A DNA stretch of 64,000 bases from Escherichia coli (GTDB lineage: Bacteria > Pseudomonadota > Gammaproteobacteria > Enterobacterales > Enterobacteriaceae), in NCBI RefSeq assembly GCF_022846255.1, contig NZ_AP025682.1; one strand, given 5' to 3'. Positions 62,040 through 64,000 of the stretch are shown piece by piece. Each line of letters opens with the position of its first letter. Position 1 is the first letter of the stretch. Made by a program: the position numbers and the translations under genes. Below the pieces are notes generated by a model that was not told the origin of the DNA, searched no databases, and was given only the letters and a program-made list of their open reading frames with translations.

Positions 62040-62433
62040 GCGAAAAAGAAAAACCGCAGACACGACGTATGCAGGACGTGCTGCGGTTGGCTGGTGAACT
62101 TTCGATAGTGCGAGTATTGAATGATTTCCAGCCGTTACCGATTTTACGTATTTTTTGTATGGGAGGATTTGCATCTCCTCCCACCGATCCTCCATGACTT
62201 TACGCCACAGTCTCTAGGACTGCTATGTGCCAATAGCAGACATCCACACAATTATGTAAAATAGGCTAGTGAGTCAGCATTCATGTAGTTCAGACCATCT
62301 ATAGCTGAAATCACGATCGCTTAACAGTGATTCACTCATAACTGCTAGCGAGCAATGTTCTTGTTTGAACCTCAAATTGAAACCACAAAATCGAAAGGTT
62401 AAATAATCGATTATCCAAATAGAAGGCAATTCA

Positions 62434-63873
62434 ATGGGAAATCACGATTTTATTAAATATATTATATTATTTGGCTTGTCTGGGATAATGTTGGCTATGC
62501 TAGTGCTCTTTATTTCCTCTGTAGCATATTATTTTTTCACCCATAATAAAGGAGTTCTTCAGTATATAATTAAAACTATTTCCATAGGCCTTGTAACTAT
62601 TCCAGTCGCAATAATACTAATCGTTGCACTCGTCCATTATGTTGTCTGGCAAAAAGGGATTTCAACGGCATGGCGTTTTATATTCCACTCGACTAAAACA
62701 ACAACCGTGAATGATATTGCTAATGCTGAATCAGAAGATGTTATTGTTCACCTTGTTCATGGAACATTCGAGACGAATGCATCTTGGACACAACCTGAGT
62801 CAAAAATGTGCAAATCAATTAACTCAAGGAATCCCAATATTGGTATATCTCGATTTAAATGGGATGGCAAAAACTCTGCATCCTCTCGTAAACAAGCGGC
62901 ATATCAATTAGGAATGCATATTGATAACTCTCCTGCAAAATACAATTATATTATTGCACATAGCCATGGGGCAGCTATTGTAAGAGAAATGTCTTATTTA
63001 CGAAGTGATATTGCAAAAAAAATTCAAGGCGTATGTCTTTTGTCACCACCGTTCATCTTTCGACGTAGGATAAAAAGAACGTCAGGTACTTTAATTAATC
63101 TTATTGATATTAGCGGAACTTTGGCCATTCAATTGTTACTTGCAGCACTTTTTGTACCTTTGAATCTATATAATATTAATTATGCAGCAGTAATTTTTTT
63201 TGTTTCAATATTTGCAGAAATTATAATCTCCAAAAAATATAAAAAAGAATTTTTGCAGGAAGTTGAGAGTGGCGAGCACTGTGAAGCGGTTGATTTTAGG
63301 AATGTTGAAATTTATCACGCAATTGGTGATGAAGCCGATTCAGGCCTAAGATTTGTAAGTTCACTTCACGAAGGATGTTTTTCAATTCTTTCCCAGCTAA
63401 AAAAAGCTCAAGTAAGTCATAAAAAGCTAACACATTGGTCAGCAGTTTTAAGCTACCTATTTTATATTTCCATGAGTGTATTAATATGGTTCTTCTATCC
63501 TGAAGAAAAATCATGGATTATAGTATTATTAGTAAGCTTTGTATTAACTTCTATTTCTCACATTTGGCAAAGGTTGAAACCATCAAAGGATGTTCCTCAT
63601 GTTTTACTTATTGCAGCAATACCAGTTGCGATTTTTTCATTTTGGTTGGCTGTAGCTAAGGCCATAGCTTATGGAGATTTGCGATTAATATTTTGCCCGG
63701 AAGTTTTTATTGCATCATCTGAAACTCCAGCTGGAGATCATAAAGTTATTAAATTTGCTCCACAGAATGATGGTATATTAATACACTCAACACACTCGCA
63801 TCCGGAGGCTATAATTAATGTTTCTGAATGGTTATATTGCTCTGAGAATAAAAGGGTAAATGGTGAACCATAG
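62434..63873 (+). CDS. polytopic membrane protein with lipase-like serine-hydrolase motifs, function unknown
   Basis: 479 aa, very AT-rich; about 7 hydrophobic helices; soluble insert with VHLVHGT, FKWDG and nucleophile elbow IIAHSHGAAIV (AxSxG). Confidence 0.5.
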   Translation: MGNHDFIKYIILFGLSGIMLAMLVLFISSVAYYFFTHNKGVLQYIIKTISIGLVTIPVAIILIVALVHYVVWQKGISTAWRFIFHSTKTTTVNDIANAESEDVIVHLVHGTFETNASWTQPESKMCKSINSRNPNIGISRFKWDGKNSASSRKQAAYQLGMHIDNSPAKYNYIIAHSHGAAIVREMSYLRSDIAKKIQGVCLLSPPFIFRRRIKRTSGTLINLIDISGTLAIQLLLAALFVPLNLYNINYAAVIFFVSIFAEIIISKKYKKEFLQEVESGEHCEAVDFRNVEIYHAIGDEADSGLRFVSSLHEGCFSILSQLKKAQVSHKKLTHWSAVLSYLFYISMSVLIWFFYPEEKSWIIVLLVSFVLTSISHIWQRLKPSKDVPHVLLIAAIPVAIFSFWLAVAKAIAYGDLRLIFCPEVFIASSETPAGDHKVIKFAPQNDGILIHSTHSHPEAIINVSEWLYCSENKRVNGEP

Positions 63874-63906
63874 ATTAATATAACCACCATAAATTAATTT
63901 GTAATA

Positions 63907-63978
63907 TACTTCCCTGCTAAATTCGCAGGGGAGTATAAAAATATACTAACTCAGTGGAGTCTTGTGCTGAGTTAGTAC
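63907..63978. repeat. two consecutive stem-loops 3' of the 479-aa gene
   Basis: TACTTCCCTGC...GCAGGGGAGTA and an 11-bp stem TACTAACTCAG / CTGAGTTAGTA with 12-nt loop. Confidence 0.4.
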
Positions 63979-64000
63979 ATGTTAACAAGATATTTATTCA

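Follow-up and report, generated by a model that had tools for sequence, protein, structure and literature searches.

A mobile, single-gene cassette at the end of a lambdoid prophage of Escherichia coli encodes a membrane-integrated serine hydrolase that we consider a single-gene anti-phage candidate outside the catalogued families. The gene is located at positions 62434 to 63873 of a 64,000-nucleotide stretch of contig NZ_AP025682.1 (NCBI RefSeq assembly GCF_022846255.1), which is referred to here as the window. The gene is real, functional and under purifying selection, and its 479-aa product represents an uncharacterised family inside the α/β-hydrolase superfamily. It almost certainly travels as a discrete cassette. 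Our favoured reading, that a functional and mobile inner-membrane serine hydrolase is used by the prophage as an anti-phage defence for the host, is put forward tentatively as a whole, and a defence role for the gene is a well-motivated inference.

The open reading frame (ORF) has exactly the coordinates given in an earlier note on this DNA.

62434..63873, plus strand: ORF of 479 aa, membrane-integrated α/β-hydrolase (serine hydrolase), intact and under purifying selection

Because the protein retrieved 58 homologue clusters and dN/dS was 0.11-0.36 in 8 pairwise comparisons (Nei-Gojobori, dS up to ~2), we do not regard the ORF as a product of chance. The GC content is 0.33-0.35 over positions 62200-64000, compared to 0.50-0.62 in the tail fibre gene, and the hydrolase gene itself has a GC content of 0.34 and a third-position GC content (GC3) of 0.24. 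The proposal that the region is AT-rich foreign cargo is supported by this contrast (0.34 versus about 0.55 in the neighbouring DNA).

To assign the fold and the catalytic residues, we aligned 31 family members, down to 32% identity, and used the alignment to build an AlphaFold2 model (pLDDT 85.3, pTM 0.80). The blocks H-G-T-F (residues 109-112), A-H-S-H (175-178), G-D-E-A (298-301), S-E-T-P (429-432) and H-x-T-H-S (451-455) are invariant in the alignment. The secondary structure elements of the model follow the canonical α/β-hydrolase order, with strands at residues 103-108 (followed by the HG oxyanion motif), 170-176 (followed by S177 in the nucleophile elbow A175-H-S177-H-G179), 197-203, 291-296 (followed by D299), 424-429 and 437-441 (followed by H451), and a final helix at 457-475. 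The core is distributed over the gene as follows.

62734..63078, plus strand: first part of the hydrolase core (β3-β6), from the alignment, the model and family conservation
62758-62766, plus strand: oxyanion motif H109-G110-T111
62956-62970, plus strand: nucleophile elbow A-H-S-H-G (residues 175-179), with S177 at 62962-62964
63286..63423, plus strand: strand β7, the acid motif G-D-E-A (298-301) and the beginning of the long helix after it
63325-63336, plus strand: the G-D-E-A motif itself, with D299 at 63328-63330
63673..63870, plus strand: C-terminal core with β8, S-E-T-P (429-432), the putative catalytic H451 (63784-63786) and the final helix

Residue conservation was counted over 129 superfamily representatives with pairwise identities of at most 50%. 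The HGT motif, the H-S-H motif with S177, and D299-E300 are present in 129/129 representatives and H451 in 125/129, whereas position 454, which is His in the window protein, is Tyr in 103/129. Present in all or nearly all representatives are H109, G110, T111, W118, W143, R152, H176, S177, H178, P206, D299, E300 and P432. Based on this conservation, and on the replacement of H454 by Tyr in most relatives, the predicted triad is S177/D299/H451 with HGT as the oxyanion motif, and its positions in the alignment and model match the canonical β5-Ser, β7-Asp and β8-His. The remaining features of the superfamily are also present: a central parallel β-sheet flanked by helices and superposable on known members, a nucleophile elbow (G/A-x-S-x-G) straight after β5 with S177 in every relative, and the order Ser-Asp-His with the acid after β7 and the His after β8. 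Foldseek matches in the PDB were all α/β hydrolases, including Bacillus subtilis LipA at 19-22% identity. The earlier note had proposed a lipase-type serine hydrolase from two motifs and a run of hydrophobic segments. VHLVHGT corresponds to residues 105-111 and AHSHG to 175-179, both inside the invariant blocks; the protein has the two hydrophobic helices near its N-terminus and five more further on; and the full Ser/Asp/His triad is conserved in the alignment and among the superfamily representatives. The observation in that note is confirmed, and its interpretation is partly supported.

As the note had also anticipated, no characterised family claims the protein in scans of Pfam, NCBIfam, PADLOC and PHROGs. 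Pfam gave only marginal Ser_hydrolase and Hydrolase_4 matches (E 0.04-0.06) and none at E≤0.001, and a sequence search of the PDB gave only marginal α/β-hydrolase matches. Within the 31-member family, Abhydrolase_6 was detected at E≤0.001 in only 3/31 proteins and DUF676 and PGAP1 in 0/31; membership in the DUF676, PGAP1-like or Abhydrolase_6 families was rejected for the window protein, which has no significant hidden Markov model match to any of them. The lipases of family I.4 (B. subtilis LipA, rumen Lip_vut1) and the small carboxylesterases are small, secreted or soluble, lid-less enzymes. In contrast, the window protein has no signal peptide, three transmembrane (TM) hairpins (of which one takes the lid position and another separates the Asp strand from the His strand) and an invariant H-S-H elbow. 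We therefore rejected assignment to family I.4 or Pfam Lipase_2, given a length of 479 aa versus about 180 aa, seven hydrophobic helices and no Lipase_2 match.

An exhaustive profile search retrieved 5488 clusters at E≤1e-3 and 2636 at E≤1e-10, of which about 14 clusters at 50% identity (E<1e-100) form a tight core family. The 2636 clusters make up a superfamily of membrane-inserted α/β hydrolases of 350-500 aa with no characterised member and an invariant HGT / H-S-H / P / D-E / P / H signature, and they are spread over Proteobacteria, Actinobacteria, Nitrospira, Bacteroidota and other groups. The AlphaFold DB holds many full-length proteins of the same architecture and with the same HGT / H-S-H / D-E / H residues (15-23% identity, Foldseek E 1e-16 to 1e-8, TM-score 0.4-0.6), among which the window family is a small, tight subgroup. 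These relatives are uncharacterised and labelled as 'alpha/beta hydrolase', 'DUF676 putative serine esterase' or 'serine aminopeptidase S33', and thus no function can be transferred from them.

The AlphaFold2 model and hydrophobicity together place seven hydrophobic helices in the protein.

62461..62643, plus strand: N-terminal TM hairpin (residues 10-34 and 45-70)
63085..63249, plus strand: second TM hairpin (residues 218-240 and 249-272), inserted between β6 and β7, where the lid is classically found
63442..63672, plus strand: third TM hairpin (residues 337-357 and 363-380) and the seventh hydrophobic helix (392-413)

The third hairpin is placed between the helix that follows the Asp strand and β8. 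Family-averaged charges were used to orient the hairpins. The tips at residues 241-248 and 358-362 carry about 0.1-0.5 Lys or Arg, compared to 2-4 in the segments next to the core (71-100, SKKYKKE at 264-272, and 325-336). Because it has almost no Lys or Arg, the tip of the lid-position hairpin is predicted to be periplasmic, and by the positive-inside rule the catalytic domain is predicted to be cytoplasmic, which would place the catalytic core on the cytoplasmic face of the inner membrane. If the core is a single fold assembled from all three of its segments, helix 392-413 cannot be a seventh membrane pass and would instead be interfacial or re-entrant. An action on lipopolysaccharide or the outer envelope, which had been suggested for this gene, is disfavoured by the predicted cytoplasmic active site.

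To define the limits of the mobile unit, the window was compared by BLAST with a set of fetched loci (numbered L001 onwards where they need to be told apart). The module extends from window position 62218/62222 to window-equivalent position 64126-64141, a length of 1.92 kb, and consists of a 212 bp leader, the gene and a trailer of about 260 bp.

62222..64000, plus strand, and on to ~64137-64141 past the window: single-gene cassette, ending in palindrome A

The same cassette ends are found in seven genomic contexts, among them this lambdoid prophage, an E. coli chromosomal island, an Enterobacter chromosome, Proteus, a Pectobacterium integrative and conjugative element (ICE) and a Salmonella IncFIB plasmid. 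They also occur in the P2-like prophage of E. coli TB06052 and in a P2-like contig of IMG/VR, in both cases between the tail fibre assembly gene G and the sheath gene FI. Of two diverged relatives, one (L039, 72% identity) is in another P2-type phage between tail-completion and baseplate genes and the other (L040, 50% identity) adjoins an integrase. Copies in E. coli, Salmonella and Klebsiella are 97-99% identical, and the hydrolase region is present in 1/5426 complete E. coli genomes, that of TB06052 (L001, NZ_CM129848.1 1801594-1827372). The P2-like prophage of this strain is decayed, with frameshifts in the terminase, the sheath and another gene, and the hydrolase is intact. A tblastn search of 50,697 deposited phage genomes gave no match.

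In strains EC4, XJW9B277 and AF39 the same lambdoid backbone carries different cargo or none, and the hydrolase gene, which is discrete and of atypical composition, has the properties of a prophage moron. The same slot, with the same junctions on either side, holds unannotated cargo of 476 aa in EC4 (L032 7774-9204, WP_001460374.1) and of 1083 aa in XJW9B277 (L034 7821-11072, WP_094319422.1). Neither protein has a PADLOC match or resembles the hydrolase, and the EC4 protein was rejected as a diverged homologue (BLASTP E 0.69); both may be further candidate cargo or defence genes. The other cargo slot of the TB06052 prophage, which separates the replication genes from the portal gene, holds an AriA/Old-like ATPase.

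The suggestion of an anti-phage role, which the earlier note had raised, is backed by genomic association with known defence systems, a correlation. When neighbouring genes were scored against PADLOC, a known system was found within about 4 kb of the hydrolase in 7 of about 12 distinct contexts, often on both sides; adjacency to known defence systems is thus recurrent, in a small sample, and it was through such guilt by association that defence systems have commonly been discovered. In an E. coli island (L016) a 1209-aa MkoC-like helicase (9e-65) of a Mokosh-like system is directly upstream and a complete Shango system (SngC 7e-278, SngB 7e-187, SngA 3e-101) is downstream. Two Klebsiella loci (L015, L010) carry the Septu-like pair PtuA/PDC-M01A and PDC-M01B, and PD-T7-3 (1e-96). 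The Burkholderia pseudomallei locus (L021) has a PDC-S35 TIR protein, a PDC-S28 helicase, a type IV restriction endonuclease (mREase_IV) and HsdR, the Enterobacter locus (L019) has PD-Lambda-1 (1e-170), and the Pectobacterium ICE (L030) has the Gabija genes GajA (1e-209) and GajB (1e-139) adjacent. In Proteus (L028) a CBASS 2TM effector and its cyclase are 3 kb away, and a tail-fibre remnant is directly upstream.

That the protein is an active hydrolase in the membrane is very probable, judging from its conserved residues and the model. A role in anti-phage defence is, on balance, the inference we lean towards, and abortive infection by lipid hydrolysis is a doubtful proposal for how it would work. 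The proposed mechanism is that a minimal lipase-like α/β-hydrolase core would be held on the cytoplasmic face by three TM hairpins. Because the core is predicted to be cytoplasmic and anchored by hairpins, the active site would be suitably placed for ester-linked lipids of the inner leaflet. The TM hairpin at the lid position would act as a gate that opens on infection, either because the membrane is perturbed or in response to a phage factor. The opened enzyme would then hydrolyse membrane phospholipids, and the membrane barrier would collapse before the phage cycle is completed. The gene, its fold, the conserved catalytic residues, the purifying selection, the mobility of the cassette and its proximity to defence systems are shown; the topology, the lipid substrate, the defence role and the trigger are parts of the proposal.

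The proposal has parallels in known defence effectors. CapV of CBASS is a soluble phospholipase of the patatin fold with a Ser-Asp dyad, which is activated by a cyclic nucleotide from a partner cyclase, and Cap15 and PycTM are transmembrane effectors. The likeness lies in the proposed destruction or permeabilisation of the inner membrane and in residence in defence islands, as with the Proteus CBASS system. Unlike CapV, the window protein has an α/β-hydrolase fold, is embedded in the membrane, and has neither a partner gene nor a recognisable nucleotide-binding domain.

A number of points weigh against the defence reading. There is no phenotype on record for the gene, no publication was found on the protein either by theme or by accession (WP_089604490), and scans of the 479-aa protein against NCBIfam and PHROGs returned nothing usable, while PADLOC-DB v2.0.0, including its PDC and HEC candidates, gave only a chance-level Cas6 match (E 0.046). 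The association with defence islands is correlative and comes from about a dozen contexts that were given no systematic score, and a Kluyvera relative (41% identity) is a solitary gene flanked by fdnG and lacI, with neither mobile elements nor defence genes beside it. The superfamily is very large, and its 2636 clusters may be mostly housekeeping proteins. The topology is derived from charge bias, and seven hydrophobic segments fit a one-sided catalytic domain only if one of them does not span the membrane. The triad was assigned from residue order and conservation rather than three-dimensional distances. Lastly, a lipase that resides constitutively in the membrane needs a control mechanism, and none is evidenced.

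Two other roles are each unlikely in our view. The protein could provide constitutive superinfection exclusion or membrane remodelling, in the manner of P2 Fun(Z) or P22 SieA, by altering a lipid or lipid-linked component of the inner membrane such that entry of phage DNA is blocked without a trigger and without cell death. An integral membrane protein that lacks a partner or sensor domain and that three independent phage backbones carry behind their tail fibre genes would suit this role, as would its presence in the P2 slot between G and FI, where P2 carries the exclusion gene Z/fun. However, the hydrolase also occurs outside phages, in defence islands, an ICE and a plasmid, and a cytoplasmic active site, if the prediction is right, is less obviously suited to blocking entry. 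Equally, the gene could encode an accessory esterase, lipase or thioesterase of the membrane that is useful in some niche (lipid turnover, ester detoxification or colonisation) and is found in cargo slots merely since these tolerate insertions. The huge, taxonomically broad and uncharacterised superfamily and the lone chromosomal gene in Kluyvera are in line with this, as is the fact that many prophage morons are not defence genes: at P2 hotspots, a putative partition system is present in about a quarter of the loci and a toxin in about 2% (PMC9122126). A defence system within about 4 kb in about 7/12 distinct contexts argues the other way, and so does the patchy distribution (1/5426 complete E. 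coli genomes) of copies that are nonetheless 97-99% identical across genera, which is typical of defence cargo.

Less probable still is a toxin or addiction element, in which a deregulated lipase would be toxic and would stabilise its mobile element or serve in interbacterial competition. A membrane-active hydrolase on mobile DNA with a conserved leader, whose inverted repeat is a possible operator, is what such an element might look like, but no conserved immunity or antitoxin gene adjoins it in any context examined, the only small ORFs of the cassette are not conserved, and the protein has no secretion signal or effector-delivery domain. It is highly improbable that the protein is a catalytically inert membrane scaffold (a pseudoenzyme) or an annotation artefact. 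The marginal Pfam scores would fit such a protein, and the homologue clusters and dN/dS values given above speak for a genuine gene. Defence by a membrane hydrolase remains the reading that we favour.

With respect to genomic position, the hydrolase cassette resembles Z/fun, old and tin of P2, the b-region morons of lambda, and the gtr genes of CPS-53 at argW, as it is AT-rich and is located behind tail fibre genes and by an integrase at argW. It differs from them in having no sequence or fold relation and in occurring outside phages as well. The defence activity of P2 old/tin and the antiviral hotspots of P2 and P4 are documented (PMC9122126). The P2 hotspot described by Rousset et al. was considered as an identification of the slot and rejected; because that locus is old/tin and not the G-FI slot, it serves as context only (PMC9122126).

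The prophage continues past the window on a contig of identical sequence (L002). A 51-codon ORF comes first there, then a P4-type integrase encoded on the opposite strand and tRNA-Arg(CCT) (argW), followed by yfdC-, mlaA-, fadL- and fadIJ-type genes. This continuation bears out the placement of the prophage end at the integrase and argW and leaves no large downstream partner. Partner genes past the window end, which the earlier note had considered, were not found: nothing follows but the 51-codon backbone ORF and the integrase, and there is no neighbour that is kept from one context to the next. The 51-codon ORF was rejected as a partner since it is outside the cassette, in a flank shared with strain EC4, where the cargo is different. 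A link to the upstream methyltransferase, suggested in the same note, did not hold up either. This gene is located between a full tail fibre assembly gene and a C-terminal remnant of such a gene (tfa), and the block recurs in other E. coli prophages that have no hydrolase; it was rejected as a partner because it belongs to the phage backbone and occurs without the hydrolase, which is itself in 1/5426 complete genomes. The duplicated tfa end suggests that cargo behind the tail fibres is exchanged by recombination within tfa.

61045-61713, minus strand: class I S-adenosylmethionine methyltransferase, phrog_2132 (annotated as of unknown function), with a weak PADLOC mad2 match (E 7e-4)
61770-62039: C-terminal tfa remnant

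Further upstream, the 944-aa tail fibre ORF (57572-60406) has a long Ala/Ser/Thr-rich central region of low complexity, with a GC content of up to 0.62, from which several long but spurious ORFs arise in the other frames and the opposite strand.

The leader and trailer of the cassette contain the following elements.

62242..62433, plus strand: 5′ leader, conserved with the gene in five genera
62309-62332: inverted repeat AATCAC-N12-GTGATT, kept in E. coli, Enterobacter, Proteus and Pectobacterium
62377-62382: putative -35 element TTGAAA, tentative
62402-62407: putative -10 element AATAAT, tentative, at a spacing of 19 nt
62424-62427: AAGG ribosome-binding site
63912..63975, plus strand: two 3′ hairpins in the trailer
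63912-63930: hairpin CCCTGC-N7-GCAGGG
63946-63975: hairpin CTAACTCAG-N12-CTGAGTTAG

The inverted repeat of the leader could be an operator or an RNA element that controls expression. A consensus scan called no promoter upstream of the hydrolase gene and no terminator after it, and the 3′ hairpins were not called as intrinsic terminators because neither has a T-run. Rfam has no family for these hairpins or for the palindromes at the cassette ends.

Both ends of the cassette are imperfect palindromes of the general form GTCCGCT-N10-AGCGGAC, whose loop contains either TCGCTCA (type A) or GTGCCA (type B).

62218..62241, plus strand: left end, 24-bp imperfect palindrome B, GACTGCT-ATGTGCCAAT-AGCAGAC
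L002 1995-2018: right end, palindrome A, GTCCGCT-TCTCGCTCAT-AACAGAC

Three prophages of the same backbone are identical up to ...GCTATGTGCCA, where they split right after GTGCCA into three different cargos, and the two with single-gene cargo re-converge at TCGCTCATAACAGAC... Based on these sites of divergence and re-convergence, the exchange points fall on the centres of the palindromes. Other cargo genes, too, are repeatedly separated by a composite in which A is followed by a spacer of about 14-22 nt and then by B. It is found around PD-Lambda-1 and the MkoC-like gene, adjoining retron Eco8 behind lambdoid tail fibres, at an e14-like end where at least three cassettes form an array, and in a Rac-like moron slot.

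L016 3946-4009 and 9680-9737: palindrome or composite sites
L019 7744-7807, 12779-12844 and 14736-14759: palindrome or composite sites
L036 7003-7070, 8678-8743 and 9893-9916: palindrome or composite sites

The exact pattern GTCCGCTNNTCGCTCANAGCRGAC gave at least 120 matches in species-representative genomes and at least 120 in viral contigs. By our estimate, a pattern with 20 specified bases should have fewer than one chance match in about 3e11 bases. The genome matches listed come from many Enterobacterales, Idiomarina, Pseudidiomarina, Rheinheimera and a Pseudomonas plasmid, and a single genome often has several of them. Among the matches listed (n=225), the copies are mainly intergenic, with 74/225 in an open frame compared to 183/225 random positions, and 124 copies are near gene 3′ ends, on either side, compared to 69 at random. 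Conservation reaches only a few bases outside the 24 nt. In the same set, a B palindrome accompanies about 15% of the A copies at a distance of 15-19 nt, and a generic palindrome is downstream of A in 65/225 cases versus 56/225 at random positions, values too close to discriminate; only the 15-19 nt offset class corresponds to the A-B composite. Where the arms vary from CCGCT/AGCGG to CTGCT/AGCAG, as read from the sequences, pairing is kept.

These ends resemble those of integron attC, Acinetobacter pdif and R64 shufflon sfx elements in that discrete cassettes are bounded by short imperfect palindromes with exchange at their centres. The integron and Xer/dif identities were considered and rejected. 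The GTCCGCT-N10-AGCGGAC ends lack the GTTRRRY/RYYYAAC cores of integron cassettes, and they have no XerC/D-like arms as in Xer/dif (pdif) sites. The sfx crossover core GTGCCAA is the same as loop B, GTGCCA(A) (PMC4176322). The match is limited to this core of 6-7 nt, the right arm TCCGGTACGTGG is missing, and the sequence differs in other B copies (GTGCCAG, GTGCCAC or GTGCAAG); because the arms differ, the link is only a weak lead. No publication was found that prints the junction sequences. In the contexts examined no dedicated recombinase is consistently adjacent to the junctions, and the adjacent integrases are of P4/lambda type or are 200-aa Xer-like fragments. The junctions could be either recombinase sites or short shared sequences that guide homologous exchange.

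Genes or fragments for the 200-aa Xer-like tyrosine recombinases come straight after junctions in Klebsiella (L010 9703-10305, L015 2690-3292), and another Xer-like gene or fragment follows a junction in an E. coli prophage (L034 7426-7758). They may be left over from element integrases or may have a part in the exchange of cassettes. The islands also hold unannotated genes without a PADLOC match: L016 9905-10921 and 1175-2515 (both minus strand), L021 9845-11494, L019 6964-7656 and 9904-10392, L035 4819-6846 (minus strand), L036 6036-6941 and 7274-8401, and L037 7215-8426 (minus strand). These add to the uncharacterised cargo, and many of them lie between the same palindromic junctions or adjoin known systems.

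A bolder version of these ideas, which we think has only a slim prospect of being right, is that the protein is a self-contained sensor-effector lipase whose TM-helix lid reads the state of the inner membrane at phage DNA entry or lysis and which then digests that membrane, a new class of single-gene immunity, and, separately, that the GTCCGCT...AGCGGAC palindromes are sites of an undescribed cassette exchange through which defence genes are shuffled across Gammaproteobacteria, from one to another of their phages (lambdoid and P2-like), ICEs, plasmids and chromosomal islands.

If the hydrolase does protect against phages, it would be a defence effector of unusual build, an α/β-hydrolase fold that is threaded through the membrane and acts without a partner, and the question of how a membrane enzyme senses infection could be tested with one gene. 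It would also open to functional study, for the first time, a very large superfamily of membrane hydrolases, one that comprises thousands of clusters at 50% identity. The identical cassette ends in two unrelated phage types, an ICE, a plasmid and islands show how the cargo behind tail fibres is exchanged, and the recurrent palindromic junctions could be a signpost for further cargo and defence genes.

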